Source of the DNA: an uncultured bacterium
GTDB lineage: Bacteria > Zhuqueibacterota > QNDG01 > JAGLOF01
DNA: 64,000 nt
Reading direction: 5' to 3'
Assembly (NCBI GenBank): GCA_964621645.1
Contig: CAZUMH010000001.1
Location: forward strand, 26,977 to 90,976
A model generated the notes under the pieces. That model saw only the letters and a program-made list of their open reading frames with translations. It was not told the DNA's origin and searched no databases. How positions within the stretch are numbered: the first letter of the stretch is position 1; each line of letters opens with the position of its first letter. Below are positions 6,101 to 53,141 of this stretch, in pieces. A program made the translations under genes and the position numbers.

Positions 6101-8040
6101 TCACGTCCGCGATTCAGGACGCCTCATCACCCCCGGAAGCATTCGCGGGCCATATCAGCACCTTCACCACGGCGGTTGAGGCACAGACGCCTGTAATCGC
6201 GTATGTCAATCCTTCGCAAGGTGCGGAGGGGACAGCGGTCGTTATTTCCGGTGAGGGATTCGATCCGGATCCGGCAAACAACGTCGTTTCATTCAACGGC
6301 ATAACAGCGGCGGTTACTGACGCAACCTTAACCAGTCTGGCCGCTTCCGTCCCCATTTCCGCCGTCACCGGACCGCTCGAAGTCACGGTTAACGGCAGTA
6401 CCAGCAACGCCTATTCATTTACTGTCCTTCAGCCTTCAGGATTTCCTGACGAATATGATACAATCAATGTGCCTGGTGAGCTGGACAATCAGGACGTTGA
6501 ATTTTCACCGGACGGCGCTTATGCGTATGTCACCAATACAGGGGCAAACTCTATCAGTGTTATTGATGTGGCGAATGGTGATTTTATCGGACAACCTGTA
6601 TCTGTCGGCGGAAGCCCGGTCAAAATCACGGTAAGCCCGGATGGTAAAAAAGCGTATGTCACCAACTTTGCCTCGCATACCATCTCCGTGTTGAATACGG
6701 CGGTTCCGGCTGATGTTACGGTTGAAACGACAATTCCCGTGGGGATCAATCCGGCCGGTATAGCAATTTCACCGGACGGGAAACGCGTCTATGTCGGCAA
6801 CTATACTTCCCGCAACATTTCCATCATCGATGTGGATGAGAACAGCGGCGGGTATAACCATGTCATCGCCAACGTGGACACCGATTCCGAAAACCGGGAT
6901 GTGGAGTTCGGCCCTGACGGACTTCGGGTGTTAATCACCGGTATGGGTATCATTGTACTCGATACCAATCCGTCTAGTGATACATACAATCAGGTCATTG
7001 CCAATGTGGAGCCGGACACCGAAACACGGGATGTTGATTTCAGTCCCGACGGCATGCTCGCGGTTGTCTCAACCATGGCCGGGAATATACTGCTCATCGA
7101 CATGATGGAAAATACCGCATCACCTTATCAGGTCATTGCCAATATCCATCCCGAGCAGGAGGCCCATGATGTTGAATTCGGACCCGATGGATCACACATT
7201 TATACTACAAATTATTATTATAATCAGCTATCCATCTATGAGCTGACGTATGGCGGTGATACTGGAGGTTCCGGAAGCAGCTATCCCTATATCGCTTCCA
7301 TGCAGTTACTCCAGACAATCGATGTTGGCGGCGCGCCTATGGGGCTTGCGATCGACAGCGGTGGCGAACGTATCATCGTGGCCAATTCAGGATCAGGTGG
7401 TGTTACGATAATCGATCTGTTCGGTACGCCTGAAAGCAATATCAAACATACCCTCAGCACAATTCACCAAATACAGGTGGATGGTTTCATCAACAGCGGC
7501 CAGGCCAACGCCCTCACCAACAAGCTGAACAACGCCTTGGATAAGCTCGCAAAGGGCAAAACGAAAACCGCTATCAATATTCTGGAATCCTTCTGCAATC
7601 AGGTTCAGGCTCTTATTAATGATGGGATAATTCCCGCGGGCATCGGTGAAGACCTAATGAACCGGGTCAAGGATATCATCGTCAGCCTGGTCAGCGGCAG
7701 TTCAGCCAGTCCTGAAGAAGAAAACCTCATGCTTACAGAACAGATGCCTAAGACCTTTTCGCTCGAACAGAACTATCCCAATCCGTTTAATTCGTCTACA
7801 ACTATCGCCTATACCATCCCGGCGGTGTCGGCGAAAACCGTAGATGTTCGACTGATACTCTATAATATTCTGGGGGAACCGGTGCGCACTCTGGTCAGCG
7901 AACAAAAATATCCCGGATTTTACGAAGTGGTCTGGGATGGACGGGACGATGCGAACAGAGATGTCCCCTCAGGCATCTATATTTATCGGGTCAAGGCGGG
8001 CGATTTCACGCAACTCCGGAAGATGATTTTGATTAAATGA
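139..8040 (+). CDS. Giant secreted multidomain T9SS cargo protein (LamG-like, parallel beta-helix repeats, metzincin Zn-protease, CarboxypepD_reg-like, Ig-like/Big, IPT/TIG, YVTN beta-propeller, FIMAH, T9SS C-terminal sorting domain)
   Basis: 2633-aa ORF with RBS GAGGTG 5 nt upstream and an N-terminal signal peptide (FFLTITGFICIILTGQAFAQ). LamG signature LYVNG...IDEVRLWN. About 500 aa of NxISGN/NxIGxD beta-helix repeats. HEIGHVLGLVH (nt 4663-4695), an HExxHxxGxxH metzincin motif. SbsA-Ig-like and IPT segments. Repeated YVTN / SPDGKxxYV propeller units. FIMAH-like helix (ALTNKLNNALDKLAKGKTKTAINIL). C-terminal QNYPNPFN...YNILGEPV...SGIYIYRVKAG...KMILIK is a T9SS CTD. Confidence 0.85.
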   Translation: MMLSHSKSKRARAMFFLTITGFICIILTGQAFAQNQAAMFDGNLTVNNGSRIRITDSQPIDPGSANPAVYQISGDHITVEAWVYPFSADGPLYSIVRRPAVYPDPDPPYTYSLHMNAGVPYFGISDGSAGSAMETDYSETIPAFAWTHLAGTYDGSYLRLYVNGIERSSVFIETDIGSGSTGLYIGRLVGRAFAGLIDEVRLWNITRDQVDIQNDMSVELTGTETGLAGYWKFNGIEEINGFQAARDYTSNNNHLIVQYNTPFVTFNPIDHHDVDAAITAHTPSIDFGTIEQAYEWKTRTIDITNGSENPLVGIMWGNISANTEGTAVMYVPPYGTESFDISLRTKDAGSLSGDIAIDYNGGSETVSATIESVPVLRFDVNQIGLWTSRTGIAGYDPFTASAGLEWPIGSGKTALYSMGIRIGALVGNEIRIAAVNYNGSEFSPGPIINGTPADPEDPIYRMYKTGGPGDGDWDVWPLDQGAPASFWGSPKLLGDQTLFSVYNDMDPGKHTVFNTAPLGVEVQQTVYGYGSGSTALENTVFFVYKIINKGSHTWENAYISVWADPDLGYYMDDFAGVDVSRGLGYLYNADNFDDPNDSNPGYGTPPPALGIDMLRGAFLSTPIQAFTYHTGIGGSAPLDDPQNAQEAYNYMQGLKSDGSPFMDGGTPTTFPLSGDPVTGTGWVDAGEADRRIMLSTGPITLKPGESRQVIAALIMAAGSDNIDSITELRNASDAVQLLFDPIVVTSAADAGNGTFRAALEEANARPGIDYIHFNISGTGVHTLQPATPYPVVMDAVIIDGKTQAGYSGTPLIEIDGSGVTGTDQRGLVIIAGNSTVRGLAINRFGQAGIVLQDNGGNTIQGNFIGTDAAGGTALGNGGFALAVGCSSNLIGGSAPGEGNLISGNGYDGIFMSDPGGDDNQVLGNIIGLDLDGQAALGNGQCGVQISNNCVNNIIGPDNIISGNVSAGVCIAGAAAANNTVLNNKIGTDISGSLAIGNLQGVNIQAPNNIVSANLISGNTSDGITLHNSDAHNNTIKGNIIGLNAAGDATLANTSVGINITGHHNTVGGSTTADRNIISGNIQNGICIELGATENNILGNYIGTDITGTKAVPNDQSGIQIRLAANNHIGGKNAGEGNLISGNDKHGIYIYGTGVTLSHSNTVQGNYIGTDKTGLKSLPNTGSGIHYATYTWGNLIGGLEPGSGNLIAFNNGAGVSFGGGGLASPPYRNAIFSNSIYANVGLGIDLNFGLDGTPYGETPNDPGDADFGTNELQNFPVLSSVEFTTDAAIINGSLNSAANTDYTIQCFACKTAHESGYGDGETLLGTETVTTDGSGNVSFTFTFPISASAGQVISMTATDPSGNTSEFSEVSGGAASQLLDLSAMTFTINSQGDPTIGDGSDITAVEAAFATWNAVSECTVNFSTVTSPDYSIADANDGINLVTFTDNEFLFAPGVLAVAAKTIRMDAAGLPAEIIDADIVYNPYWTTHYKYNFKTDTDPGYFDIQSVTTHEIGHVLGLVHSGVETATMFFMIGSDINARTLETDDMAWVRSKYPETGTYSATYGSLTGRIEDGYSSGTGIAGALVYAISEATGDSVHTYSDANGDFTIPGLLPGNYTVFVEPLDGDVCGFALRPAHISAYIYAITKITDFPEEYYSGTSEGVSEVEDIAAIVTVSAGGPAGPITILTNRDVTPPVVLSVSPGSGSTDIAVTSQILAGFSEPVDAATISASTCFLSVGPNPVNCQMDYTMMDNDKKVLLTPGILLQHETDYTLHITSGVTDLHGNGLSSEYTSTFTTIPADIEAPSVTGVVPADGAGSIFPTANITVIFSEPVDASTLEAGFTLSTANISDVPASFTLNQSGSTVTFDPVNSLMEGTTYTVTLTADITDLSGNPLSSAPYSSSFTTVAQAAPLLEYIGPNPGQDNVSVTTTVLTEFSEPINPATVNPSSFILRQGSTQIAGNFEFLNNNAGVVFRPFEDLDFGLTYTIELTSAIQDASSPPEAFAGHISTFTTAVEAQTPVIAYVNPSQGAEGTAVVISGEGFDPDPANNVVSFNGITAAVTDATLTSLAASVPISAVTGPLEVTVNGSTSNAYSFTVLQPSGFPDEYDTINVPGELDNQDVEFSPDGAYAYVTNTGANSISVIDVANGDFIGQPVSVGGSPVKITVSPDGKKAYVTNFASHTISVLNTAVPADVTVETTIPVGINPAGIAISPDGKRVYVGNYTSRNISIIDVDENSGGYNHVIANVDTDSENRDVEFGPDGLRVLITGMGIIVLDTNPSSDTYNQVIANVEPDTETRDVDFSPDGMLAVVSTMAGNILLIDMMENTASPYQVIANIHPEQEAHDVEFGPDGSHIYTTNYYYNQLSIYELTYGGDTGGSGSSYPYIASMQLLQTIDVGGAPMGLAIDSGGERIIVANSGSGGVTIIDLFGTPESNIKHTLSTIHQIQVDGFINSGQANALTNKLNNALDKLAKGKTKTAINILESFCNQVQALINDGIIPAGIGEDLMNRVKDIIVSLVSGSSASPEEENLMLTEQMPKTFSLEQNYPNPFNSSTTIAYTIPAVSAKTVDVRLILYNILGEPVRTLVSEQKYPGFYEVVWDGRDDANRDVPSGIYIYRVKAGDFTQLRKMILIK

Positions 8041-12946: not shown

Positions 12947-14131
12947 ATGAACAGTTCAGAATCCGCATCCCGTGAACAGAGAAAAATGACGAACATTTTT
13001 GAACGCTATCTGACAATCTGGGTGGGGCTTTGCATTCTCTTCGGCATCCTGCTCGGGAAAATCGCCCCTTCCGTGGCGACAACGCTGGATAACATGTCTA
13101 TCTATGTCGGCGATGCACCTGTGGTATCGATCCCCATCGCGATCTGCCTTTTCTTTATGATGTATCCCATTATGGTGAAAATCGATTTTCAGGAAGTAAT
13201 CCGGGCAGGCAAGAACGGAAAGCCGGTGGGATTAACGCTCTTTCTAAACTGGGCGGTCAAACCGTTTACAATGTATGCAATCGCCTTCTTTTTTCTCGGT
13301 GTCCTTTTCAGGGGATTGATCGGCACTGAAGCAGTCGATTTGGTTAAACTGCCCTTTGGGCTGGATTTACCGGTTGGAGCCAGGCATGGAGCCGGAACCG
13401 TTATTTTGCATCAAGGAGTGAAAATGCTGCAGGTGCCTCTCTGGAGAAGCTATCTGGCGGGAGCGATCCTGCTCGGCATCGCGCCCTGTACGGCCATGGT
13501 TCTGGTCTGGGGATATCTGGCTCGTGGAAACGATGGACTCACTCTGGTAATGGTGGCCATCAACTCCCTCACGATGCTGGTGCTGTACGGAGTCCTCGGC
13601 GGATTTCTTCTCGGGATCGGCAGGCTGCCGGTTCCCTGGCAAGCGCTGTTTCTTTCAATTGCCGTATATGTGGCTCTTCCTCTGATTGCAGGATATTTCT
13701 CCCGAAAATGGCTCATCGCCGTTAAGGGAATTACATGGTTCAAGGAAAAATTTCTTCATATCCTGACTCCGATTACCATTATCGCACTTCTCGTCACCCT
13801 GATCCTGCTTTTTAGCTTTAAAGGAGAGATTATCCTTTCCAATCCGCTTACAATTTTATGGATTGCTATTCCGCTTTTCGTCCAGACCAATCTCATTTTC
13901 TGGCTGGGGTATGGTCTCGCCCGTTTGTTGAAATTAAAATATCAGGATGCTGCTCCCGCTGCCATGATAGGCGCTTCCAACCACTTTGAAGTCGCTATCG
14001 CGACATCCACTATGCTGTTTGGGTTGTCTTCCGGTGCGGCCCTGGCAACGGTTGTCGGAGTTCTGATCGAAGTTCCTGTCATGCTGATGCTTGTCAGAAT
14101 CTGTCGCAGGACACAAGGATGGTTTGATTAA
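12947..14131 (+). CDS. acr3: Arsenite efflux transporter, ACR3 family
   Basis: ACR3 hallmarks FERYLTIWV near the N-terminus and [26 protein letters not shown]. About 10 TM segments. There is an unusual ~35-aa insertion before the RSYLAG motif and a 13-aa N-terminal extension. Confidence 0.85.
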
Positions 14132-19599: not shown

Positions 19600-20498
19600 C
19601 GGGATATGATACAAAATCAAACTGACACCAGCCTGAATAAATAATACTTGCGAATGAAAAAATCGGGATGCTTTGAACAAATGCCCTGAAAAGATGTCTC
19701 ATACCATGGGAAAGCTCATCTGCTGGTTGAGTGGGGACGGGTTCTCCGGCATTAGGAAAATCGCCGCCCGGACAGGGGAAACAAGGGATCGCCCGTCCCG
19801 ATTATTCAATACTATTCTTAAAAAAAATATCGGAAATGACCGAGTGACCATGTCAGGCGATTTTTCTGAAGCCGAGGGTTGTCTTTGACTGTACCATAAA
19901 GAATCATTTACAGAAACGTTGTTGCCAAAAAGAAATATACCTCATTTCGGGCCTGATTTCGGCCCGAAGGCGCGGCTGCCGCTTTATATACCGTAAAACA
20001 CCCGCATCCGAAAAGGGGCCGGCGTAAAAATGAAAACAGTTGGCGGCCCGTCTCATTTTCGGGCCGCCGTATAGAGAGAAAAGCAGCGTCCGGGGGCCGG
20101 GATGGGGCATGGAGACTCGAAGAATGGGAACGCACCTGTGAAAAGCTATTCAGCCGCGCCAGGGGTTTTTGGTCCTTTTTGCCCCGTCAAAAAAGATATC
20201 TCATCCTAAAGGGAGACTTCTGATACAGTCCGATTAACTAAATTGAAATGTAAGAATCCCTTAAATTGTTAACCATGTACTTGGACTGTCCCAATTCAAT
20301 ACAGAGTATTATTGAGAGATTCCGGATTGGTTTCACCGATAATCATAACAACGTACACTACAAAATGAAAAATTAATCGCTGTGCCCGGTATCTGAAAAT
20401 TGCCGGGCGTTTTTTCAACATTTCTTGTAAAATATGGGTATCATATAGTGAAAGCGCTGCGGGGAAAGCGGTCAGGCTGGACAAACCGGAAAGAACAG

Positions 20499-21606: not shown

Positions 21607-22584
21607 ATGAAAAAGCACATCATTGTAATTACACTGCTGGCCCTGCTGCTGACTGCGGCGGCCGGCATGACCCAGGTCCCCAATCACGGCACGGTAAGCG
21701 GCACCGTTATCGATGAGGATTCAGGAAAGCCGATTGAGAATGTACTGGTAAAGTATCATTACACCGGCAGCGATAAAGCGGAGATGGGGACAATGACCGA
21801 CGCCAAGGGGGAATTCACTGCCAAGATGATCGAGCCAAACCAGATCGTGATCTTCCTTTTCAGTAAAAAGGAGTATCAGCAGGAGTATCGAGAACTGGTG
21901 GTGGAAAAATTCGAATCCAAGGAACTTTCCATCTCACTGAAAAAAATCACCCCTTCCTTAAATTATGCCCCTGAAGCCCGGACCTTTCAAATAAAGTACC
22001 GCGACGCTCAGGATATCCTGGAAATTATCAAGCCCTTTCTCAGTGATGCCACTGGCCATGATAAGGTCTCGATGTCTCCTTCCCTGCAGACAATAACGGT
22101 CTACGCCAATCAGGAGAAACTGGCCAAAATCGCCAAGACCATTGCCACCTACGATGTCCCCCCGAAGCAGATCTGGGTGGAAGTAATGCTGGTCAAGGCC
22201 AGCGGCAACGGCGGCGGCAAGGCGAAAATTCCGGCGGAATTGAATAATCTGGCGAAACAGCTGGAATCCGTCTTCAAATTCACCACTTTTGAAATCATCG
22301 GCAGAACGACCGCCACAGGGGTGGAGGGAGCGAACATCCAGACCTCCTCAAATATGGATAAAGTCAACCTGCTTCCCAGCTTTCAGATACGGGGCGGCCT
22401 CAATCTCAGCGGTGATGTCATCAGGCTGGATCATTTCCAGGTCCAAGTTGTCAGGCCCATCCGCAGCGAGATCGCCACTACGGTCAACATTCCCGACGGC
22501 GGCAAGATGATTCTGGGAGCCTCCAACGATAACGCTCTGGAAGGCTCGCTGATCACGGTGGTGTCCGCCAGAGTAATGAAATAA
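21607..22584 (+). CDS. Secreted CarboxypepD_reg-domain + Secretin_N-domain protein with short secretin-like C-terminal beta region (mini-secretin-like)
   Basis: AAGGAG RBS and signal peptide. GTVSGTVIDEDSGKPIENVLV...DAKGEF is a carboxypeptidase-regulatory-like beta-sandwich. ARTFQIKYRDAQDILEIIKPFL...ITVYANQEKLAKIAKTIATYDVPPKQIWVEVMLV matches the GspD/PilQ secretin N-domain pattern. C-terminal TTVNIPDGGKMILGAS...LITVVSARV resembles the end of a secretin domain. At 325 aa it is far shorter than canonical secretins. Confidence 0.6.
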   Translation: MKKHIIVITLLALLLTAAAGMTQVPNHGTVSGTVIDEDSGKPIENVLVKYHYTGSDKAEMGTMTDAKGEFTAKMIEPNQIVIFLFSKKEYQQEYRELVVEKFESKELSISLKKITPSLNYAPEARTFQIKYRDAQDILEIIKPFLSDATGHDKVSMSPSLQTITVYANQEKLAKIAKTIATYDVPPKQIWVEVMLVKASGNGGGKAKIPAELNNLAKQLESVFKFTTFEIIGRTTATGVEGANIQTSSNMDKVNLLPSFQIRGGLNLSGDVIRLDHFQVQVVRPIRSEIATTVNIPDGGKMILGASNDNALEGSLITVVSARVMK

Positions 22585-22824: not shown

Positions 22825-24720
22825 TTGAAGGTTCGCTCCCTCCCTTATCGGGCTGCCCTGATCCTGATGCTCCTCTCGGCACACTTCTGCCGGGCAGGGC
22901 ATGAAGTCAGCACCCTCCTCAAACTGGATTATTCGGCAGCAGCTGATATCCGCATCCGCAGCAGCAGCGACGGCAATGCCGGTATCGTCGCGTTCAGCGT
23001 TCTGGATGAGGCCCGGGTCGCCCTGCTCTGTATTACCACCGACTGCATTACTATCCACCGCATCCCAGATGGTCTGCTGCTGCAGACAATTCCCCTACTC
23101 AGCCACCCCAGGGATTTCATCTGGAACGGCAGCCGGTTTTTTGTCCGCTTCAGCGACAGGGTTCTGACAATGGACGCTGAAGGCGGTCAGCGGACCGAGA
23201 TACCCCTCAATCCCTCAATCAGGTTCATCTCCCGGCTGAAATGGCGGAATGGAACACTTTATGCCCTCACCGTGGATGGATACTCCTATCCGCTTTCCCG
23301 GAACGGACAGCCGCTGGAGACGGGCAGTCAAATCAGAGAGCGGATACGCGGGTGGGCATTGGATAATGGAATATCGGCATTTCCGGTCATTACCGCTGAA
23401 TTCAGCGGCGAAATCAGAGTCTACACCGGCCCGGACAGCACCTTTATCCCCGTCTCCTCCAGTACACCTCTTGGCTGCATGCGGATCATCGGCACAGCCG
23501 ACAGCTCCCTCTACCTGGAAATCCAGACTATCCTGCAGCAGGTCCCCTTGCGAGTCAGCCGTACGGTTGCCCGTCTCTCGATGAGTGGTGGACGGATCAT
23601 CGACACCTTCGAACCGCCCCGCAGTACTTTTTTCCCCATGACCGCTGATCTTATCATAAGGGAAAACACGCTCTATCACGCGCTCACAACACCGGAATCG
23701 ATCATTTTTTACCGGCTTCGCCAGGACTCCCGCCTCCGGAAGACAATTTTTCCTGCACCGCCGGAGGAGTACCATTATAATGATCATCTGCCGGAATGGG
23801 ACAGGATGAGCGTACCAAGTGAAGCTGTGCCGGGGCCGGCGGTACTCGATCCCATCAGCAGAAGTGCAATCATGGAGAATGCCGACAAGTATGTCCAGGT
23901 CGAATGGATATGCGGAGAGAAGAATACGAGCAACAATGAAGTGATCTCCCTTCCGGACGGTGCCCTTATTCAAACGCCTGCCTGGGTGACGGTCGGCCCC
24001 AAGAAGCGGACTCCCTACAAATGGGGAGGATTCACCCATGTCGATATATTCAGGGAACGAATCGAAGCGGAATGCTATGCAGGAGACGTCTACGGCGACA
24101 GGAATGATCCCCAGACCGTCAGTCCCGGAGACGCCTACTGCGTCGGTGTCGACTGCAGCGGATTCGTCTCCCGCGCCTGGAACCAGCCGGTGAAACACTG
24201 GACCGGATCACTCCCGGAAATCTCGGAACCTCTGGAGAGCTGGTCCGAGGTGCGGCCCGGAGACATAGCGGATAAAGTCGCGGGACATGTGATGCTGATC
24301 GTGGACAGGAGCAATTCCGGGGTTTTCAGTGTTGTGCACTCCAACGGGACTACCGAAAATGTGTGCTATCAGATAAAGACACTGTACGATCTCAGCGGAT
24401 ATGTACCCATGAAATACGCGGCGGTCATCGAAGACGGGTGGGAGCCCGAAACGGCGGAATGGACGGCCCTGTATCAGAATTTCCCTAATCCGATTCGCTC
24501 TGCCACCCAGATGCCATTCTACCTTACCTATGAATCGGACGTGACCATCAGCGTGTATAACCTTCTCGGACAGGAAGTCGCCGTTCCCTGCAGCGGACAT
24601 TTCAGCGAAGGCGCACACAGCATCGGCTGGGATCCCGGTGAACTGCCGTCGGGGATCTATTTCTACCGTTTGAAGACCGACTGGGACGTATTCATGAAAA
24701 AATGCATCGTCGTCGAATGA
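22825..24720 (+). CDS. T9SS-sorted secreted protein with NlpC/P60 (CHAP-like) cysteine peptidase domain
   Basis: TTG start with GGAAAGGA RBS and signal peptide. Cys/His pair in YCVGVDCSGFVSRAW ... GDIADKVAGHVMLIV (nt ~24130-24310) fits NlpC/P60 cell-wall hydrolases. C-terminal YQNFPNPIRSAT...VYNLLGQEV...SGIYFYRLK is a T9SS CTD. Confidence 0.75.
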   Translation: MKVRSLPYRAALILMLLSAHFCRAGHEVSTLLKLDYSAAADIRIRSSSDGNAGIVAFSVLDEARVALLCITTDCITIHRIPDGLLLQTIPLLSHPRDFIWNGSRFFVRFSDRVLTMDAEGGQRTEIPLNPSIRFISRLKWRNGTLYALTVDGYSYPLSRNGQPLETGSQIRERIRGWALDNGISAFPVITAEFSGEIRVYTGPDSTFIPVSSSTPLGCMRIIGTADSSLYLEIQTILQQVPLRVSRTVARLSMSGGRIIDTFEPPRSTFFPMTADLIIRENTLYHALTTPESIIFYRLRQDSRLRKTIFPAPPEEYHYNDHLPEWDRMSVPSEAVPGPAVLDPISRSAIMENADKYVQVEWICGEKNTSNNEVISLPDGALIQTPAWVTVGPKKRTPYKWGGFTHVDIFRERIEAECYAGDVYGDRNDPQTVSPGDAYCVGVDCSGFVSRAWNQPVKHWTGSLPEISEPLESWSEVRPGDIADKVAGHVMLIVDRSNSGVFSVVHSNGTTENVCYQIKTLYDLSGYVPMKYAAVIEDGWEPETAEWTALYQNFPNPIRSATQMPFYLTYESDVTISVYNLLGQEVAVPCSGHFSEGAHSIGWDPGELPSGIYFYRLKTDWDVFMKKCIVVE

Positions 24721-25098: not shown

Positions 25099-27258
25099 TT
25101 ATAGGCGCCAGAGATAGGAGGCCTTGAAGAAGAGGCCCCGCTGCGTTTCCAGAAAACGGTCGCTCTCGATGTACTGATCCGTGTTCCACTCGATCCGGTC
25201 ATAGCGGGAACCGTAGCCGAAATGGAGCACGGTACCGGGAATATAGGTAAATGAAACCAGGAAATCGGTGGTGAGCTCTTCGTAGAAACTGTTGTATTCC
25301 ACAATGGCCCGCAGGAAAAGATAGCGGTTAATCTGATACGTGTTTCTGCTTCTGATGATGGTGTAATCGAATACCTTGGAGCTGTCATCCTCGCGATAGA
25401 GATCACTGTACACCAGCGACAGGGTAGAATTTAGGTATTTATTAGGCTGGTAGATCAGCGAGACGGAGCCGGTATTCCCCCGGCCCTGGTAAGGATCCTC
25501 TATATAGCGGATTTTTTTTGCGCCGGCCCAGGAAAGAGAAAAAAAGAATCCTTTCATTATCTGGCTCTGGCCGATGAGGCTGTAGCCGCTTGTCTCGAAC
25601 TTCTCCTCGTTAAAGATTTCGGTGGAATAAATATATCCCACCCTGAAAATCGAGTTACGCGTCAGTATCAGGTTCGTATAGAATCCGTTCGCGTTTTCCC
25701 ACTCACCGGCATGCTTGTCCCTGATGAACTGATTGTTCAGCATCGGATCGATCCGTTTCAGGATCCCCTTTTTGAGAAAGAAGTGCTTGACTACGCCCAA
25801 ACGATAACGGGTGATGCCGGTTCGGGTCAGGTATCCGATCTCGGTATTGAAATGTTCAGACAGGTCGTGCACCCGGGCGTTTATCTGCCAGTCACGGTTG
25901 CTGTAGAGATAATTCACCCCGACCGCGTGTCCCTTCTGTCTGATGTCGGTATTCAGATTTCCATCATAGGAGAAAATTCCGTGGTATCCGATAGCACTGG
26001 AGCGGGTCAGCCGCATGTATCCGTCGATTCCAGTCACTCTGTTGAAGCCGTCTTCCCGTTCTCTTCCGGTGTAAAAACTCCCTATATAACTGTCTCGGTC
26101 CAGGGCTTTCTTGTGCCTGATAATGAGAATGTCGGCACAGGCTGGATCACCTCCCGTTTCCGAAAGTTCATCCCGGGCGTAGATGGCGGTAATGGTATTG
26201 GTGGCATCCAGCTTTCCGGATAATTTGACCCCCAGCTTGGGATCGACGATGCTGCGGGTATGAACAATCTCTCCCAGGGGATCCCCGTCACTGCTGCCGC
26301 CGAAGATGAAATGTTCCTTCCCTTCGAGGAAAAAGGGCCGCTTTTCGGGATAGTAAAGCGCGTAGCGCTGGTTGAAATCGACCTGACCCGCGTCCGATTC
26401 AACCTGACTGAAGTCGGGATTATAGGTCGCGTCCAGGATCAGCCTGGAGGTTAGACCCAGTTTGCCGGTCAGACTGAATTCTCCGTCTCCGTCCTCGGCC
26501 TTCAGTTGCCCCATTTCATCATAACTGTTCCGGGACCAGGTTACCGCGGGCAGTATTTCCAGCAGCCGGTAGTGCTTGATCCCCTCATAGACCAGCGGCC
26601 GTGTCTGGGTGTTGAAATTCGGCCCCCATTTGGGATCAAGCGCGGGATAGGTGCCGGCCTCTGTCTTGCGGCTGATGAAGCGTTCGAAAATCACCCCCAT
26701 GGTCACCGGATCGCTGTCCGAATACCGGATGGATTTGAATGGGATTCTCATCTCGGTAGCGTACCCCTCTGGTGTAATCGTCCCGTGACTGTACCAGACG
26801 AAATCAACGCTGGTATCCTCATTGTCACCGACAGCCCTGGCGTCCATCTGGATACCCTGGGGATTAACATAGAAAGTATAGAGCCCCTGTTGGTCATTGT
26901 AGGTGTCGAGATTGATGCAGATCCAGTCATCGGAACGGATTTTGTCCCGCGCCGTGATGGATGTTTTAATCTTGTCAGGTTCACTGTCATAGCACAAAAA
27001 AGCGAAATAGATGTTCTCCCGGTCATAGGCGTACCAGACCTTGGTCTGTTCACTCATGGGAACGCCGTAATCAGGCAGATAAGTCATGAATCCTGTCTCT
27101 GACGGCGCCTGCTTCCAGACGGCGTCATCGAGCACTCCGTCGATGACCGGAGGGATGTTCGTTTTGAATGGTCTCAGGATTTCCTTTTTCTGCGCGGTCA
27201 GGGCCGTTGTAACAATAAAAAGCATACAAAGGGCCGGGATCCAGGTTTTTTTCACCAT
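25099..27258 (-). CDS. DUF5916-like outer-membrane protein with N-terminal CBM9-like domain
   Basis: Signal peptide. N-terminal IPPVIDGVLDDAVWKQAP...WYAYDRENIYFAFLCYD is typical of the CBM9-like module that precedes the DUF5916 beta-barrel in Bacteroidota. The C-terminus ends in an aromatic residue (YLWRL), which fits an OM barrel. Confidence 0.55.
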   Translation of the reverse strand: MVKKTWIPALCMLFIVTTALTAQKKEILRPFKTNIPPVIDGVLDDAVWKQAPSETGFMTYLPDYGVPMSEQTKVWYAYDRENIYFAFLCYDSEPDKIKTSITARDKIRSDDWICINLDTYNDQQGLYTFYVNPQGIQMDARAVGDNEDTSVDFVWYSHGTITPEGYATEMRIPFKSIRYSDSDPVTMGVIFERFISRKTEAGTYPALDPKWGPNFNTQTRPLVYEGIKHYRLLEILPAVTWSRNSYDEMGQLKAEDGDGEFSLTGKLGLTSRLILDATYNPDFSQVESDAGQVDFNQRYALYYPEKRPFFLEGKEHFIFGGSSDGDPLGEIVHTRSIVDPKLGVKLSGKLDATNTITAIYARDELSETGGDPACADILIIRHKKALDRDSYIGSFYTGREREDGFNRVTGIDGYMRLTRSSAIGYHGIFSYDGNLNTDIRQKGHAVGVNYLYSNRDWQINARVHDLSEHFNTEIGYLTRTGITRYRLGVVKHFFLKKGILKRIDPMLNNQFIRDKHAGEWENANGFYTNLILTRNSIFRVGYIYSTEIFNEEKFETSGYSLIGQSQIMKGFFFSLSWAGAKKIRYIEDPYQGRGNTGSVSLIYQPNKYLNSTLSLVYSDLYREDDSSKVFDYTIIRSRNTYQINRYLFLRAIVEYNSFYEELTTDFLVSFTYIPGTVLHFGYGSRYDRIEWNTDQYIESDRFLETQRGLFFKASYLWRL

Positions 27259-27513
27259 ACAGTGATTCCTCATGCTTTAAATTGGCTTCTGGAAATTATT
27301 GGTGTCCGGTTACGAATAAACCGGCTGGCATATAGTCATAATACGGAAAAGTAGAGAATGAGTTTCTTGATTCCTCCTGCAAGAAATTGAGCTTTGTCTT
27401 CCGGAATCCTTAAGCTTTCAGAGCAAGAAAAATTCATCCATGACAGCATAATAAAACCCCCGACAATAAATGCCGGGGATTTTAAGTACTCTCTCACCTG
27501 CTTCAGCATGTAG

Positions 27514-28815
27514 CTATTTTTCTTTTTCCTGTTTTTCTTTTAACTGCTTCTCTTTTTCCTGACTGTCATGCTGCCATTTTTTATACTTTTCGTCAAGCAG
27601 CTGCAGTTTTTTCTTTACTGCATCCCGCTCTTCATCGGTCTCAGCATCTTTGTATTTCTGCTCCAGCGCCGCGTGATCTTTCTTGTACATCTTTTCGTAT
27701 TCGGAATCCGTAACTGTAACGGTCTTCATGTTATTTTTTTCATCCTGTTTCAGCATCTGCAGTTTCTTTTCGACCTCCGCCATCTTCTTCTTCAGCATCG
27801 CCTTCTCATCTTCGGTCTCAGCCTTTTTATATTTGGCTTTGAGTTCCTTGAGCATGGTTTCGAGCTTTTTAATCTCTTCTTTCTTCTTGGTGTCTTCATC
27901 ATAGGCGGTGCTCTGATCCGTGACGGTAAGGACCGGGCCGGTCTGTGCCATTGCCTTGGTGTCGATTAAGGCTTTGGGCCGCGCAAACGCCAGGATGAGA
28001 ATCGAGAATACAGGCAAGATCAGCAGCACTCGCAGGCGTGACCATCTGCCGGATTGTTTTTTCTGCATCATGGCTATTCTCCTTCTTATTTGAGATTGAT
28101 GAAAATTATTCGCCAGGCTGAAAATCCTGACGCCCACGAACCGCTCAAAAATCAGCGTCTGATAGCCTGCCCTGTCGCAGCCCTGCGCAATGACCGCTTC
28201 ATCGGCAAGAAATTCGTGGGTCTCCTTGATCGCCCTTTTGTATGGCCAGACAAAAGGATTGAACCACTGTACTATTGAGTACAGTTCCGTCAGCAGAATA
28301 TCTATGGTATGATACTGCCGTATATGAACAATTTCATGGGAAATGATTTGTTCCAGGTCATTTTGATCCAGCTTGGATGTATCGAGAAAAATGAGATTGA
28401 AAAAGGTAAAATCCGATATCCCGTTATCCGTAAAGACGAATTTATGTCCGTTCTTTTCCGTTATTCCATATTTTTTAACCAGCTTCGCAAGGTGCCCAAG
28501 GCGCAGCATGAAAATGACCAGCAGCAGGACTGCGCCCCCTATATAAACATACAGCAGGTAATCCGTGATATCGGTCCTGTATCCGGTGCCTTCATAGACG
28601 GTCTCGACGCTGTAGCCGGTAACATCCATGCTCCGGGAAAGAAATGGTGATTGCAGATGAATTGCGGGAATCAGCAGTGAAACAGGCATGGCGAGGAGTA
28701 AAAACAGCCTGTTTATTCTGAAGAATGTCTCTTTCCGCAGCAGAAGCCGGTATATCAGATAAAACAGAGCCATACTGATTCCGGATTTCAGCAGATAGAT
28801 TAGTGCGGGATTCAT
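27514..28815 (-). CDS. BlaR1/MecR1-like M56 family signal-transducing metalloprotease with C-terminal K/E-rich coiled coil instead of a sensor domain
   Basis: Four N-terminal TM helices. HEXXH Zn site HEIVHIRQYH and downstream FLADEAV (M56 motifs). A further TM follows, then ~180 aa of lysine/glutamate-rich heptad repeats (KYKKAETEDEKAMLKKK ... KYKDAETDEERDAVKKK). Confidence 0.8.
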   Translation of the reverse strand: MNPALIYLLKSGISMALFYLIYRLLLRKETFFRINRLFLLLAMPVSLLIPAIHLQSPFLSRSMDVTGYSVETVYEGTGYRTDITDYLLYVYIGGAVLLLVIFMLRLGHLAKLVKKYGITEKNGHKFVFTDNGISDFTFFNLIFLDTSKLDQNDLEQIISHEIVHIRQYHTIDILLTELYSIVQWFNPFVWPYKRAIKETHEFLADEAVIAQGCDRAGYQTLIFERFVGVRIFSLANNFHQSQIRRRIAMMQKKQSGRWSRLRVLLILPVFSILILAFARPKALIDTKAMAQTGPVLTVTDQSTAYDEDTKKKEEIKKLETMLKELKAKYKKAETEDEKAMLKKKMAEVEKKLQMLKQDEKNNMKTVTVTDSEYEKMYKKDHAALEQKYKDAETDEERDAVKKKLQLLDEKYKKWQHDSQEKEKQLKEKQEKEK

Positions 28816-28816
28816 C

Positions 28817-29194
28817 TCAGTCCCCCTTCTTTTTCTCAATTTCCTGCTGAATGAGCCTGGCAATCTCCTCCAGTTCATTCAGATTTACCTGTTTTTCCTT
28901 GGCAAAGAAAGAGACCAGCTCCTGGTAGGAATTCTCAAAGTAGTTTTTGACAAAATTATGCAAATATTGCTTTTTATACTCATCCTCATCAATCAGGGGA
29001 TAGTACTGGTGAGTGTTCCCGAAGGAGCGGTGGTCCACAAATCCCTTTTTCTGCAAAATCCGCACAATGGTGGAAACGGTGTTATACGCGGGTTTCGGTT
29101 CCTGGAGTTCTTCCAGGATATCCCTGACGAATCCTTTTCCAATGTTCCAGAGTACCCGCATGATCTGTTCTTCCGCTTTTGTCAGAGTTTTCAT
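28817..29194 (-). CDS. BlaI/MecI/CopY-family transcriptional repressor
   Basis: Penicillinase-repressor winged helix: LTKAEEQIMRVLWNIGKGFVRDILEEL...YNTVSTIVRILQKKGFV. It sits directly upstream of, and adjoins, the M56 gene. Confidence 0.85.
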   Translation of the reverse strand: MKTLTKAEEQIMRVLWNIGKGFVRDILEELQEPKPAYNTVSTIVRILQKKGFVDHRSFGNTHQYYPLIDEDEYKKQYLHNFVKNYFENSYQELVSFFAKEKQVNLNELEEIARLIQQEIEKKKGD

Positions 29195-29204
29195 GGCTTT
29201 TCCC

Positions 29205-29227
29205 TGTATTCTAATCAATTGTTTACA
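29205..29227. promoter_or_regulatory. Candidate BlaI operator (TGTA-N15-TACA dyad with central CAATTG) overlapping the blaI translation-initiation region
   Basis: TGTATTCTAATCAATTGTTTACA lies 11-33 bp upstream of the blaI start codon. BlaI/MecI/CopY repressors bind TACA/TGTA dyads. Confidence 0.3.
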
Positions 29228-30152: not shown

Positions 30153-30619
30153 AGTGATTTGACTCCTTCTAGACTTGATCATGAATTATTGATTGTGTCG
30201 GTTCCATTGCGCCAATAACTACTGATTTAGTTTTCTAACTATTTGTTTAGTTATACACCAGGTATTCAGAAAAGTTTCATTTTTTTTTAAGTCCCCCGAC
30301 ATTTTATATCCACCTGCTGCAGATCAGTTATTACATCGACATCCCGTACCTCTCTCGGGAGTTCAAAACTGAACGGTTCTCCCTTTAATAACAGAAAGGG
30401 ATCGTTTATCCAGATGGTGTTGTCGTTACGATGAAAAATATCAAGGAGGAGTGAAATCGGCAGACCTAATCAGCTCCCGCTGTAGTTACTGAAACCAGAA
30501 AAAACAGCAAAATCAGAAGGAGAAATTCCGTCCAGACCGTCGTGATATAGGAAGCCCTGACTTTCACCACTTCAATTTTCCCTAAAGGACGGCCAAACCG
30601 GAAGATGTCTCCATTTACG

Positions 30620-35377: not shown

Positions 35378-36526
35378 TTACCTAAGCAATATCAGCTTTC
35401 TTATCTTTGTATATTCTCCCGCCTTCATTTTGTAAAAATATACGCCGCTGGCCAATCCGTTGGGCTGCCAGACTGTTTCATGCAGACCTGCCGGCATGGT
35501 GCCATCAACCAGGGTTTCTATTTCCTGTCCGACAATATTATATACTTTGATCACGACGCGGCTCGCCTCGGCCAGCGTGAATTTTATGTTTGTTGACGGA
35601 TTAAAGGGATTGGGATAGTTTTGGTACAGATTAAAACCCCCGGGGATGACCTTGTCATCCTTCCCGATCAGTGTTGTACCGCTCCTTGTATGCAGGGTGA
35701 AAAAATCCCAGATGCTATCAGTTGCGGTGATTCCCCAGTTTGAAGGTCGCGGCCACTCATGCTCTCCGGTCGGATTTGTATAGAGGATGATGTCCGTCAA
35801 TCCGGTTGATGATGGCCATTGCCTTCCAATAATGCCATTTTCATTATATATAGTATCCGGATCCGAGCTGCAGTCATTGATGCGGCGCCATGCAGCCATG
35901 GTTGAATCCACCGGAGGGATGGCATTCGTGCTGTCACCCGCTCCATAATAGGGGAAGATATCATCACTCAAGCCGTGAAAATGAATGATCGGCACCGGGA
36001 ACTCGGGATTGCAGTATTCATACAGCATCTGTCCCGAACTCACTCCCATCGCCGCGATTTTATCTGATAGTTCCGCGGCAACACGGTAGGCCATGGCAGC
36101 TCCGTTGGAAAAGCCCATAACATAAATTCTGGTAGTATCGACATTATTGTTCATTATCATTGTGTCGATGAGTGCCGAGATAAATCCGATATCATCAGTT
36201 CCTTGAGTGATATCTTCATAGATGCCGCCGGCGTTCCACCAGGTCAGCAGGTTGTAACGGAGACCGTTGGGACAGGCGACGTAAAACTTTTCTTTTATGG
36301 CTTTCTGCACAATGGCCGTGGTTGCCATAAATGTCAATCCATCCGAACCTGAACCGTGCAATCCGATAATCAGGGGATACCCATCGAGATTGGGAGGCAA
36401 GGAAGATTCATACATCGCGTAAGTACGTGTAGTGTCTCCGTATACGAAATCCTGATACTGCCCGTACAGCAGTTGAGAGATAAGACAGATCCCGATGACA
36501 ATGAATAGTACCGTTCTCTTCGACAT
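35378..36526 (-). CDS. T9SS-sorted alpha/beta-hydrolase esterase (PHB-depolymerase/feruloyl-esterase-like, CE1-type)
   Basis: AAGGAGGG RBS and signal peptide. LIIGLHGSGSDG oxyanion region, nucleophile elbow GFSNGAAMA (GxSxG), His in FHGLSDD. C-terminal YQNYPNPFNPSTNIKF...VYNIVGQEI...SGVYFYKMKAG...KLILLR is a T9SS CTD. Confidence 0.8.
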   Translation of the reverse strand: MSKRTVLFIVIGICLISQLLYGQYQDFVYGDTTRTYAMYESSLPPNLDGYPLIIGLHGSGSDGLTFMATTAIVQKAIKEKFYVACPNGLRYNLLTWWNAGGIYEDITQGTDDIGFISALIDTMIMNNNVDTTRIYVMGFSNGAAMAYRVAAELSDKIAAMGVSSGQMLYEYCNPEFPVPIIHFHGLSDDIFPYYGAGDSTNAIPPVDSTMAAWRRINDCSSDPDTIYNENGIIGRQWPSSTGLTDIILYTNPTGEHEWPRPSNWGITATDSIWDFFTLHTRSGTTLIGKDDKVIPGGFNLYQNYPNPFNPSTNIKFTLAEASRVVIKVYNIVGQEIETLVDGTMPAGLHETVWQPNGLASGVYFYKMKAGEYTKIRKLILLR

Positions 36527-47374: not shown

Positions 47375-47520
47375 ATTTCACTCCTCCCAAATTGGTTTAC
47401 ATGTACCCAAACGTATATCCTAAATCATGTAAAAGAACTTGACTCAGCAGTAACAATATCCCCGGGTGAATGTATATATGAGAAACCTGATTATTCGCAA
47501 AACTAATAATCTTGTTCAGC

Positions 47521-47793
47521 AGGGGCTCATGCCCCTACGGAGTAAAATCAATACAAATTAAATTACTTTAATTCTTGTCCCGCTAGGGACAAAATGTTTA
47601 TATGACACCCTCCCCTATTGATCAAGTCCCGTTAGGGACGAAATAATATCTCTCCCCATGAAGGCTCATGACCTTGCAGATAAAAATATTATTGCACAAC
47701 ACTAAAAACCTGTCCCGGTATTCTTTAGGTCGGGAGGCATGACGAAGGACAATTTCCCCTCTCCGCGGGGGCTCATGCCCCTGCGGAGTAAGA
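47521..47793. repeat. Cluster of short hairpin-forming repeats (MITE/REP-like). Two copies of GGGGCTCATGCCCCT(A/G)CGGAGTAA flank two copies of (C)TTGTCCCG(C/T)TAGGGAC(A/G)AAAT plus degenerate relatives.
   Basis: Read directly: 47521-47547 and 47767-47793 are a direct repeat, each with a 5-bp stem GGGGC/GCCCC. 47575-47596 and 47624-47645 are each GTCCC-GNTA-GGGAC palindromes. Degenerate copies lie at 47661-47677 and 47709-47744. The right-hand copy sits exactly where homology of the truncated esterase fragment ends. Confidence 0.5.
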
Positions 47794-47888
47794 AAAAACA
47801 CCCGGATAAGATTCTGATTATTTGCTTGGCCGAAGACAAATAACGGCATAAGGATCAAGCAAAGGATAAGCATCCGTTTTATTTTCAT
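47622..47888 (-). pseudogene. Truncated duplicate of the 5' end (signal peptide + first ~33 codons) of the SGNH/SASA esterase gene 42327-43286
   Basis: MKIKRMLILCLILMPLFVFGQANNQNLIRVFFL aligns with MKRIVMIILCVALLPFFAFGQGKNRNEIRVFFL of the intact gene. Homology stops at the GGGGCTCATGCCCC repeat. The GQSNMDG catalytic motif is absent, and the upstream region is also duplicated. Confidence 0.55.
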
Positions 47889-48012
47889 GGCTGCTCCGCT
47901 GAATTAAATAGTATTACTGGTTATTACGATCGAAGGTTCCGTGTATAAAATATAAGCAAATCTAACAGGTTTTGCAATCAAGGGATAGTGCCATCCTCTG
48001 ATCATCTGATCC
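47889..48012. repeat. Second copy of the esterase promoter/leader segment (see 43287-43419)
   Basis: 47954-48012 (AACAGGTTTTGCAATCAAGGGATAGTGCCATCCTCTGATCATCTGATCCGAGGTCGCCC) matches 43361-43419 at ~85% identity. Confidence 0.6.
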
Positions 48013-48422
48013 GAGGTCGCCCAATGACCGGCATTATCATCATTGCAATCACCGCTGCGGGTTACCAAGTCAGGTATCTGCATAAACTGATTGAATAATA
48101 CTTCGATGGCGGATATGTGGCTTTTTCATGCAGATGTTCCTCAAGAGAGCCCAAACATACTGTCTTATCTAGCAGAAGATGCTCCGGCTTTCTACCGGGT
48201 TTGCTGATTCCTGTTAGCCTATATAGGCGGTTCGGGTATCCCACCTCAGATACTATGGGAGTTCTGGAAAATCCTTTTCGATTTAAAAAACTATTTGATA
48301 TATAATTTGAAAAAACTACATTTCAATAATATCGGTGGAGATATAAATATCGATTATAACCTCTCAAATAATAACTCAAAACATAAAGGAATTAACAAAT
48401 TAGTATCTGGAAAGGGCTTAAA

Positions 48423-49870: not shown

Positions 49871-51232
49871 ATGAGGATTGTCATGAGTACTAAAAGAATT
49901 GTATGGCCCGGGATCATCCTGCTGATCTATTCTTGTGGGATGGGATTGGAAGGGATGCTGGCGGCCCAGGAGATCCTGCCGCCAAAGGCGGTGGAATTCC
50001 CGGCCGATTACACGACCGCGGACTGGAATCTGCCCGCGTCTCCCGCCCTGGCGGACTATGAGGAAGCCCTCCTGTATCATAATCCTGAGGTCAGGAGCGC
50101 CTATGAAACTTGGCGTGCCCAGGTGCGACAGATCGCCGTCAGCCGATCCCTGCCGGATCCGAAAATCAGTCTGGGGTATTTCATCCGGAATGTTGAGACC
50201 GCGGTGGGACCTCAGCAATACAAGATCGGTCTCTCCCAAATGATCCCCTGGTTCGGCAAACTGAGCCTGCAAGGTGATATTCAGGCCGGCCGGGCCCAGG
50301 CCTCCTATGAGCAGCTGCAGACCATGCTGAACAGCCGCATCCTAGAGCTGCGCCGGGTCTACTACGACGCCTACTATCTGGAACGCGCCGTCGCCATCAC
50401 TCGCCAGAACTTGGATCTGTTGCAGAACTGGGGAAAAGTCATACTGGCCAAATACAGCACCGGCACGGCCCGACACGCCAATCTGGTCAAAACCCAGATC
50501 GAGGTCATCAAATTGGAGGATGACCTGGAAACCCTCAAAGAGACACGCCGGCCCCTGCTGGCCTCCCTCCGGGCTCTCCTGAACCGGAATGATCTGGAAA
50601 AAATCAATCTGCCCGACAGCCTGGATTTCCGGCCCTTAGCCGTCACCAAGGATGAAGTTTTCCGGCTGGTTCTGGATGCTAATCCCGGGTTGGCCGGCCT
50701 GCGCTCCCTCAACCGGGTCGCCGAACAGTCAGTCACCCGGGCCAAACTGAACTATCTGCCGGATTTCTCCCTGGGACTGGAGCGGGTCTTCACCGGCGAC
50801 AAACTCAACGTCGCGGGAGTACCGGTACCCGGCAGCGGCAAGGATCCGCTGGTTGTGAGCGGCTCCCTCACCATCCCTCTCTGGTTCGGCAGGCAGTCTG
50901 CGGAGGTGAACCGGGCCCGCCATCTGGAGCAAAAATCCCAGGCCGACCTGGAAAGCGGCAAGAACGGACTGCGGCGGGAACTGGAGAGTCTCTGGTTCGA
51001 GCTGGAAAAATCCCGACGCCGGGTTAGCCTCTACCAGGATCAATTGATCCCCCGCAGCCTGGAATCGCTCCGGGCGGTGGAGAAATCCTATATTGGTGGA
51101 GAAATGGACTTTTTGAATTTAATAGACGCCCAGAGACGCCATCTGGAATTCACCCTGTCTCTGGAGAAATCCCTGGTGGAATACCACAAAGCCAAGGCCC
51201 GGCTCGAGGCTCTGGCGGGGAGGAACCTATGA
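49871..51232 (+). CDS. czcC: Outer-membrane efflux protein (TolC family; CzcC/CusC-type outer membrane factor)
   Basis: Signal peptide. Two tandem OEP repeats rich in L/Q/E coiled-coil (ALLYHNPEVRSAYETWRAQ..., ...LESLWFELEKSRRRVSLYQDQLIPRS...). The stop overlaps the next start (ATGA). Confidence 0.85.
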   Translation: MRIVMSTKRIVWPGIILLIYSCGMGLEGMLAAQEILPPKAVEFPADYTTADWNLPASPALADYEEALLYHNPEVRSAYETWRAQVRQIAVSRSLPDPKISLGYFIRNVETAVGPQQYKIGLSQMIPWFGKLSLQGDIQAGRAQASYEQLQTMLNSRILELRRVYYDAYYLERAVAITRQNLDLLQNWGKVILAKYSTGTARHANLVKTQIEVIKLEDDLETLKETRRPLLASLRALLNRNDLEKINLPDSLDFRPLAVTKDEVFRLVLDANPGLAGLRSLNRVAEQSVTRAKLNYLPDFSLGLERVFTGDKLNVAGVPVPGSGKDPLVVSGSLTIPLWFGRQSAEVNRARHLEQKSQADLESGKNGLRRELESLWFELEKSRRRVSLYQDQLIPRSLESLRAVEKSYIGGEMDFLNLIDAQRRHLEFTLSLEKSLVEYHKAKARLEALAGRNL

Positions 51233-53133: not shown

Positions 53134-53141
53134 GATTAGAA

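Follow-up and report, generated by a model that had tools for sequence, protein, structure and literature searches.

In the BlaR1–BlaI system, which serves as the model for the mechanism considered below, a membrane-bound M56 protease acts on its cognate repressor by regulated proteolysis (PMC9834060; reviewed in PMC7593790). Staphylococcus aureus BlaR1 carries the gluzincin motifs H201EXXH and E242XXXD (PMC9834060), and the repressors MecI and BlaI are cleaved at N101|F102. A 2026 survey of about 15,000 M56 proteins distinguished 254 architectures, the commonest of which has a C-terminal region without an identifiable domain; TonB_C proteins rank second, transpeptidase domains account for only ~6%, and about 96% of the proteins surveyed are near a BlaI-like gene (PMC13492132). 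In the majority of BlaR-like sensor proteases there is no domain for binding beta-lactams, and their signals are not known (PMC13492132). Sensor-less BlaR homologs have been studied in Mycobacterium tuberculosis, M. abscessus and Pseudomonas aeruginosa. The M56–TonB fusions of Bacteroides thetaiotaomicron (TonB1 and TonB10) have been noted as uncharacterised (PMC10350073). Here we describe a gene pair from a 64,000-nucleotide stretch of contig CAZUMH010000001.1 of an uncultured bacterium (the whole stretch is referred to as the window), in which a BlaI-like repressor gene directly precedes a gene for an M56 metalloprotease. By its sequence the pair belongs with the non-canonical BlaIR systems; the protease ends in an extracytoplasmic tail with two copies of a conserved helical repeat, and the predicted operator of the repressor is a tandem of palindromes upstream of a three-gene operon.

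The assignment of the two genes to the BlaI/BlaR family, made in the original prediction, was upheld. The 125-residue repressor matched Pfam Penicillinase_R (PF03965) at 2.8e-32 (111.9 bits against a cut-off of 22.6) and aligned over its full length with the MecI structures 1sd6 and 1okr (1.4e-14 for 1sd6, over residues 4–116); its recognition helix is PAYNTVSTIVRIL. The segment LVSF-FAKEK aligned with the cleavage region of MecI, LVLN|FVEKE, and the P1' Phe is kept. The M56 protein scored 48.3 bits against Peptidase_M56 (PF05569; cut-off 31) over residues 147–250 only, and contains the zinc-binding and catalytic motifs H160EIVH164 and E201FLAD205, both of which are invariant across 120 homologs. 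Hydropathy identified four hydrophobic segments, at about residues 3–22, 36–54, 85–108 and 258–280, consistent with four transmembrane (TM) helices, the protease domain being located between TM3 and TM4. Ahead of TM4, NNF237 and R245–R247 are conserved among homologs and may be the counterparts of the autocleavage-loop Phe and Arg294, respectively, of BlaR1. The AlphaFold2 (AF2) model of the protein, built on 58 homologs, had a mean predicted local distance difference test score (pLDDT) of 83.8, and its only significant fold matches in the PDB were to S. aureus BlaR1 (8exq, 8exp and 8ext; Foldseek E=7e-6 to 1e-4, top probability 1.00). Homology and the positive-inside rule together suggest the in/out orientation of the TM scaffold, and the protease active site is expected on the cytoplasmic face. 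ATG 29194 and ATG 28815 were taken as the starts of blaI and the M56 gene because all homologs begin MK.LTKAEEQ and MN..L.YLL, respectively, and the 433-residue product is recorded as called; the program-derived starts of the open reading frames (ORFs), TTG 29218 and ATG 28878, are over-extensions.

The region beyond the last TM helix is, as originally noted, neither a beta-lactam-binding nor a TonB-C domain. Pfam and NCBIfam searches of the M56 protein returned no transpeptidase or TonB_C match even at E<=10, no SXXK motif or transpeptidase sensor was found in it, and the NCBIfam models blaR1_generic (43.8 bits; cut-off 400) and sensor_BlaR1 (23.3 bits; cut-off 1200) matched over the protease region only. 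These data, and the lack of a beta-lactamase or penicillin-binding protein (PBP) gene in the operon, argue strongly against a true beta-lactam sensor with an unrecognised binding site. A CopY-like metal-responsive system is the companion to this explanation, and taken together the two are very improbable: although the repressor scored 51.6 bits against TIGR02698 (CopY/TcrY), and the acidic T/D/E-rich turns of the tail could in principle bind cations, the score is far below the equivalog cut-off of 121.95 and the repressor contains no cysteine, hence no CopY C-terminal Cys motif. The absence of a known sensor domain, which had been regarded as unusual, is ordinary for the M56 family, where it characterises the commonest architecture (PMC13492132).

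The tail is K/E-rich, as first described, but shorter than the ~180 residues proposed: 153 residues follow TM4, of which 128 make up the K/E-rich part. Charged residues contribute 49% of the tail (38 K, 23 E and 13 D), and the original observation of an internal repeat, KYK(K/D)AET(E/D)(D/E)E..., was confirmed. Judged from sequence comparison, however, the tail is not the generic low-complexity segment that was envisaged, as it comprises two copies of a conserved ~38-residue helix-turn-helix unit that can be defined by a hidden Markov model (HMM). In each unit a T/D-rich N-capping turn joins two amphipathic helices; the consensus is xxxxKxKxLKxxYxxTDDPExKxxIKxKLxxLxKK, with the core LKxxYxxTDDPEKKxxIKxKLxxL. 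In the window the string ...KYKKAETEDEK... aligns without gaps to ...KYEKTDDPEKK..., and LKxxxxxTxDPxxKxxxKxxL is kept twice in the family-wide consensus of the full-length alignment. In the AF2 model a disordered linker (about residues 293–306) is followed by four helices arranged as two hairpins, predicted at a pLDDT of 80–93, which turn at AET; in repeat copy 1 the helix break is at A332-E333-T334. The heptad coiled coil put forward initially survives in part. Of the four helices, H1 (p=0.004) and H4 (p=0.02) show a significant hydrophobic periodicity of 3.5 residues, and H2 and H3 do not; the model displays two hairpins that break at the AET turn rather than one long helix.

No Pfam model for the 38-residue repeat was found. 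Permissive Pfam and NCBIfam searches with the tail returned noise only (for example, PAS_GdpP at 0.0061, and DUF6381), and precomputed matches of the homologs P0002 and P0003 to PF26044 (Antitox_halo) were faint and were not reproduced. A family profile had no match among PDB sequences. The literature searched gave no description of the repeat, an absence of evidence that applies to the searchable literature only. The topology of BlaR1 and a strongly basic segment before TM4 would place the tail in the periplasm. The window encodes proteins with type IX secretion system (T9SS) sorting domains (22825–24720 and 35378–36526), the only taxonomic pointers in it, and these indicate a diderm host of the Fibrobacteres–Chlorobi–Bacteroidetes (FCB) type.

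The repeat marks one group of M56 proteins. Most of the ~60 top homologs have two to four copies by the repeat HMM, which detected none in 49 TonB_C homologs; across the tail-type M56 clade the copy number is 2–5, and in some homologs (P0042 and P0074) poly-proline linkers are interleaved with the repeats. When 1.84 billion representative proteins were searched with the repeat profile, 42 matches were obtained at E<=1e-3, nearly all of which are M56 C-termini or fragments that begin just before TM4. The only clear carrier of the repeat outside M56, P0253 (358 residues), has a signal-peptide-like N-terminus, a different helical C-terminus and five LxxLHAALKxTDDxxKRAAIxAEIEKI units. When one genome per GTDB species was scanned, the relatives that matched through the tail were almost all from metagenome-assembled genomes of Aminicenantes, several of which carry unreliable ‘Eubacteriales’ labels; the best match was 41% identical. 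Relatives from Bacteroidota carry TonB_C. Neighbour joining on the M56 core grouped the TonB_C proteins into a single clade (49 plus 3), and the rest of the tree is made up of the K/E-repeat proteins. The blaI gene is directly upstream of the M56 gene in essentially all 80 related loci; beyond this pair no conserved neighbours were apparent among 22 loci compared.

The extreme composition of the tail, together with the TonB_C domain of the nearest well-annotated Bacteroidota relatives, could be taken to mean that the tail arose by frameshift or misassembly, or that it belongs to a decayed protein of the TonB type from which the C-terminal domain is gone. This explanation is hardly credible and, on the comparative sequence evidence, essentially refuted. 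Two independent SRA assemblies contain loci (L084 and L085, 69% and 66% identity) with collinear tails that have the same two repeats and similar ends, about 60 further homologs also stop after the repeats, and the identical 433-residue product is on record from a 101,586-bp NCBI contig. In addition, the M56 stop codon is followed by a clean terminator, no TonB_C-like coding potential exists downstream or elsewhere in the window in any frame, and the TonB_C proteins are a separate clade.

The operator of the repressor is predicted to be a tandem of AACTA-N6-TAGTT palindromes located 1 kb upstream of blaI, within positions 30217–30252 (Table 1). Three independent lines led to this assignment: a gene-blind scan, covariation with the recognition helix and the conserved position relative to the promoter. 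Perfect copies of AACTA-N6-TAGTT occur twice in the window, against 0.02 expected, and none of 100 shuffles had two; the start-to-start phasing of 20 bp corresponds to two helical turns. The same tandem, with exactly 20-bp phasing, lies 2–90 bp upstream of blaI in 21 of 21 tail-type loci. A gene-blind metagenome scan for the tandem pattern retrieved 80 loci, in about 57 of which blaI is within 150 bp downstream. The half-sites covary with the recognition helix: AACTA is found with AYNTVSTIVRIL (52 loci), TACTA with AYTTVATVLKVL (9 loci) and ATCTA with AY(S/T)TIATFLKIL (6 loci, Prevotella-type), and the window repressor has the AACTA-type helix. As only 1 of the 80 pattern-retrieved loci encodes the repeat tail and 23 encode TonB_C, the operator is common to a much wider BlaI clade than the tail. 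More generally, BlaI-like repressors of FCB and Acidobacteriota lineages are associated with xCTA-N6-TAGx palindromes, usually as a 20-bp tandem (L004–L083). No description of the AACTA-N6-TAGTT operator was found in the literature searched, which again is an absence of evidence within searchable literature. The window contains no second operator-bearing gene, the single site with one mismatch (47501–47516) being in an ORF-free region.

Operator 1 overlaps a TATAAC −10-like hexamer (30250–30255), and a putative −35-like TGAAAC is at 30274–30279; these elements suggest a promoter in the conserved block next to the operators. The block GAAACTTTT...GGTGTATAACTAAAnnnATAGTTnnnnAACTAAnnnnnTAGTTA is homologous to the sequence that directly precedes blaI in L084 and L085, the two closest relatives. 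In Aminicenantes loci the operators overlap a TTGACA/TATATT promoter.

A different regulatory site was named in the original prediction, in which BlaI acts at a TGTA-N15-TACA dyad overlapping the blaI start, a K/E coiled coil serves as a mechanical or protein-interaction sensor and the target is the downstream gene for the DUF5916 outer-membrane protein. Firmicute bla and mec operators and the cop box are of the TACA/TGTA type, which the dyad, a 4+4 match, recalls. The string is present, 11–33 nt upstream of the blaI ATG rather than overlapping it; the window has three occurrences, where 0.22 would be expected, and a weak sigma-70-like match (29264–29236) would put it just downstream of a start site. 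The DUF5916 gene also adjoins the homologous pair in L015 and has an operator-like site (AACTCATTCTCTACTT, 27349–27364, two mismatches) about 80 bp upstream. This scheme is nevertheless improbable as a whole. Three same-species contigs excepted, none of the 80+ other loci has the dyad upstream of blaI; the conserved element of the clade is the AACTA-N6-TAGTT tandem, whose half-site covaries with the recognition helix. The other two copies in the window, one intergenic and one inside the ORF at 21607–22584 (19890–19912 and 21741–21763), are unrelated in context, and TGTA-N15-TACA was rejected as a regulon motif; these two copies share TGTAC...TAAAG.ATCATT.ACA. With respect to DUF5916, the gene is beyond a strong terminator, sites with up to two mismatches are at chance level in the window (15 against 13.3 expected), the site cited being the only one near the gene, and L015, where DUF5916 is convergent, is the sole other locus among the 22 with this neighbour. 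The dyad is probably not an operator, and in our view it arose by chance or is the relic of one; the spacer around it contains a degenerate AAACA-ATTGAT-TAGAA that agrees with the consensus at 6 of 10 positions. The other target that had been suggested, the blaI–M56 pair itself, fared better, as the predicted operators are upstream of the operon that holds both genes, and self-regulation of the pair is supported by this arrangement.

The layout points to a three-gene operon, PD40-blaI-M56. Its first gene, PD40, separates the operator block from blaI, is preceded by an AGGAG Shine–Dalgarno sequence, and encodes a protein with a signal peptide (MRRYGFVFLMALMVININA/QE). A 52-bp spacer separates it from blaI, and the M56 start codon is 1 nt after the blaI stop, an arrangement in which the two genes are translationally coupled. 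The predicted operon is closed by a hairpin some 30 nt beyond the end of the M56 gene, which has a folding energy of −31.3 kcal/mol (z=−4.8); none of 200 shuffles was as stable. Contigs L086 and L087, from the same species, also have the order operator-PD40-blaI. An intervening gene between operator and blaI recurs elsewhere: in L127 and L135 its product is a thioredoxin-like lipoprotein, and in L169 it is a TPR-like protein. PD40 was rejected as a recurrent partner of BlaI, its homologs occurring in four other contigs without blaI or operators. The PD40 family is very abundant, with 6,276 matches, many 60–87% identical across unrelated metagenomes (P0123–P0241); its neighbours elsewhere include cupins, a beta-lactamase-fold/TPR protein, alpha/beta hydrolases and a Lactamase_B–PD40 fusion.

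Table 1. Features of the blaI–M56 locus and its surroundings, in window coordinates.
Feature	Position	Strand	Basis
Conserved promoter block ATGAAACTTTT...GGTGTAT (putative)	30253-30280	minus	conserved with L084, L085
Operator 1 (predicted), perfect 16-bp palindrome AACTAAACAAATAGTT	30237-30252	minus	zero-mismatch match
Operator 2 (predicted), perfect palindrome AACTAAATCAGTAGTT	30217-30232	minus	zero-mismatch match
PD40 (TolB-like) beta-propeller gene, 301 aa	29247-30152	minus	Pfam PD40 3.4e-20
TGTA-N15-TACA dyad in the 52-bp PD40-blaI spacer	29205-29227		string match
blaI-like winged-helix repressor gene, 125 aa	28817-29194	minus	Pfam Penicillinase_R; MecI alignment
M56 metalloprotease gene, 433 aa	27514-28815	minus	Pfam Peptidase_M56; motifs; TM segments
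M56 core, aa 1-280, four TM	27976-28815	minus	hydropathy, motifs, AF2
HEIVH codons	28324-28338	minus	M56 zinc motif
EFLAD codons	28201-28215	minus	M56 zinc motif
Extracytoplasmic tail, aa 281-433, 153 aa	27517-27975	minus	hydropathy, AF2, composition
Repeat copy 1, aa 317-354, KLETMLKELKAKYKKAETEDEKAMLKKKMAEVEKKLQM	27754-27867	minus	repeat HMM, 35.2 bits
Repeat copy 2, aa 376-413, MYKKDHAALEQKYKDAETDEERDAVKKKLQLLDEKYKK	27577-27690	minus	repeat HMM, 36.4 bits
Terminator-like hairpin AAAAUCCCCGGCA-UUUAU-UGUCGGGGGUUUU and U-tract	27448-27484	minus	RNA fold
DUF5916/CBM9 gene, beyond the M56 terminator	25099-27273		

The reading we favour, and consider probable, is that the locus encodes a non-canonical BlaIR regulated-proteolysis switch, in which the tandem operators control the PD40-blaI-M56 operon and the repeat tail is the input element. 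BlaI dimers would bind both operators, which are on the same face of the DNA and overlap or lie just after the promoter, and repress the whole operon, the blaI gene included. By homology with BlaR1–BlaI, the activated M56 protease would cut BlaI in its conserved C-terminal helix, at LVSF-FAKEK, and the resulting relief of repression would lead to more exported PD40 protein, BlaI and M56. The tail would act as the input or contact element of this switch, and what it detects is probably a protein or surface derived from the envelope, or the geometry of the periplasm, and not a small molecule. A role as a protein or envelope contact module is favoured because of the conservation of the repeat, its modular copy number, the poly-proline stalks and the presence of TonB_C at the same position in the sister clade.

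Several observations weigh against the switch as formulated. The canonical N|F scissile pair of BlaI and MecI reads F-F in the window repressor. The packing of the two hairpins was not confident (predicted template modelling score of 0.37 for the tail alone), and fold searches with the tail gave only generic helical hairpins. The promoter hexamers are weak and the −35/−10 assignment is uncertain, and the sigma-70-like match upstream of blaI could provide blaI-M56 with a promoter of its own, although matches of this kind are no commoner in the window than chance predicts. The PD40 gene is inserted at this position in this species only; as its homologs elsewhere are unlinked to blaI or operators, its recruitment is lineage-specific, and PD40 may be a passenger rather than a designed effector. 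Finally, the BlaR homologs of M. tuberculosis, M. abscessus and P. aeruginosa are without any sensor domain.

A tail with a structural role, for instance in bundling a dimer or as a spacer in the periplasm, would also fit the last of these observations. The signal would then be perceived elsewhere, as it has to be in sensor-less BlaR homologs: for example by the TM helices, by the extracytoplasmic loop between TM2 and TM3, or through a cytoplasmic or membrane cue. We view this as a serious alternative, if a somewhat unlikely one. BlaR1 is a domain-swapped dimer (PMC9834060), the amphipathic hairpins of the tail have heptad-like seams, and a copy number that varies from 2 to 5, together with poly-proline linkers, is as expected of a spacer. 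Conversely, the T-D-D-P-E-K-K turn and the helix register are conserved even though the cores are only 35–40% identical, which exceeds what a spacer would need, and in the sister clade the same position is occupied by TonB_C, a protein-interaction domain.

The regulated-proteolysis switch can also be cast in a bolder form, which is doubtful: the repeat would be a previously unrecognised periplasmic input module, a length-variable array (2–5 copies, in some cases on poly-proline stalks) that reports the state of the envelope to the protease in the cytoplasm, and the switch would directly control the exported PD40 protein. Such a module could respond to contact with a partner in the outer membrane or associated with peptidoglycan, or to the width of the periplasm. 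If this were true, PD40 would be the first effector handle for this class of sensor.

Tandem operators without an adjacent blaI were observed directly upstream of envelope genes in the metagenome loci L095, L101, L103, L107, L109, L122, L130, L136, L137 and L150. The genes behind these operators encode OMP_b-brl_3/CarboxypepD_reg beta-barrels, ExbD, a ChaN-like protein, DUF1214/DUF1254, a small TonB_C protein, small lipoproteins and a PAF-AH-like hydrolase. Based on their operators, these loci are candidate distal regulon members of non-canonical BlaIR systems, whose regulons may be envelope-centred.

The remainder of the window contains two very large ORFs of 2,633 and 1,798 residues (139–8040, plus strand, and 57076–62472, minus strand), an ACR3 arsenite efflux gene (12947–14131, plus strand), and a cluster encoding TolC, a resistance–nodulation–division (RND) adaptor (CusB/CzcB-like) and a 1,256-residue transporter (49871–56912, plus strand). 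The ~1-kb stretch at 47375–48422 is without ORFs of at least 100 residues and holds the operator-like site at 47501–47516. It includes two copies of a 30-nt element with a GC-rich hairpin (GGGGCTCATGCCCC), at 47516–47545 and 47762–47791, which are 90% identical and 246 bp apart; no Rfam match was obtained. Ribosomal RNA and transfer RNA families had no match in the window, and no housekeeping markers were present among the ORFs scanned.

The locus refines a known, poorly understood class and does not overturn current understanding, and its new elements are modest. The first is a C-terminal repeat family, definable and unannotated, by which one clade of M56 sensors can be recognised. The second is a sharply defined, predicted tandem operator, AACTA-N6-TAGTT, whose half-site/helix covariation looks usable as a specificity code for regulon prediction. 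The third is an exported PD40 propeller whose gene has joined the operon in this lineage and which is a candidate output.

Compared with BlaR1–BlaI and MecR1–MecI of S. aureus and Bacillus licheniformis (MEROPS M56; 8exp/8exq; 1sd6/1okr), the window locus has the same order of adjacent repressor and protease genes, a Penicillinase_R repressor and a four-TM gluzincin with HEXXH and EXXXD motifs, an Arg cluster before TM4 and a BlaR1-like predicted fold. Two dyad operators and autoregulation are further common features, which in the window are predicted from sequence. In contrast to BlaR1 and MecR1, the M56 protein has no transpeptidase-like sensor (no SXXK) and, the host being a diderm, its tail would be periplasmic; in contrast to BlaI and MecI, the clade operator is AACTA-N6-TAGTT and not TACA/TGTA, and the scissile N|F position is F-F. 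Unlike the bla and mec loci, there is no beta-lactamase or PBP2a target gene. The difference from CopY/TcrY is in the score, which is under the cut-off, and in the lack of a C-terminal Cys-rich metal site in the repressor.

The Bacteroidota M56–TonB_C fusions are a sister clade of the same M56 core (30–37% identity), with blaI upstream and in many cases with AACTA-type tandem operators too; the poly-proline linkers of some tail-type homologs also resemble TonB linkers. The two types differ in that helical repeats replace TonB_C (PF03544) in the tail-type proteins, and they split cleanly in the M56-core tree. The closest parallels are CenIR of Clostridioides difficile (PMC13492132), PvmSR of P. 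aeruginosa (bioRxiv 10.64898/2026.08.03.742534) and the BlaIR systems of M. tuberculosis and M. abscessus, in which, as in the window, an M56 protein without a transpeptidase domain is paired with a BlaI-like repressor. These non-canonical systems are known to act on envelope, exported or metabolic genes and not on genes for resistance to beta-lactams. The studies of CenIR, PvmSR and these two BlaIR systems make no mention of the 38-residue repeat or of the AACTA-N6-TAGTT operator. The window protein is set apart from these relatives by its C-terminal region, which is not short or unstructured but consists of a definable, conserved 38-residue helical-hairpin repeat, of which proteins of one clade, to which it is restricted, have 2–5 copies.

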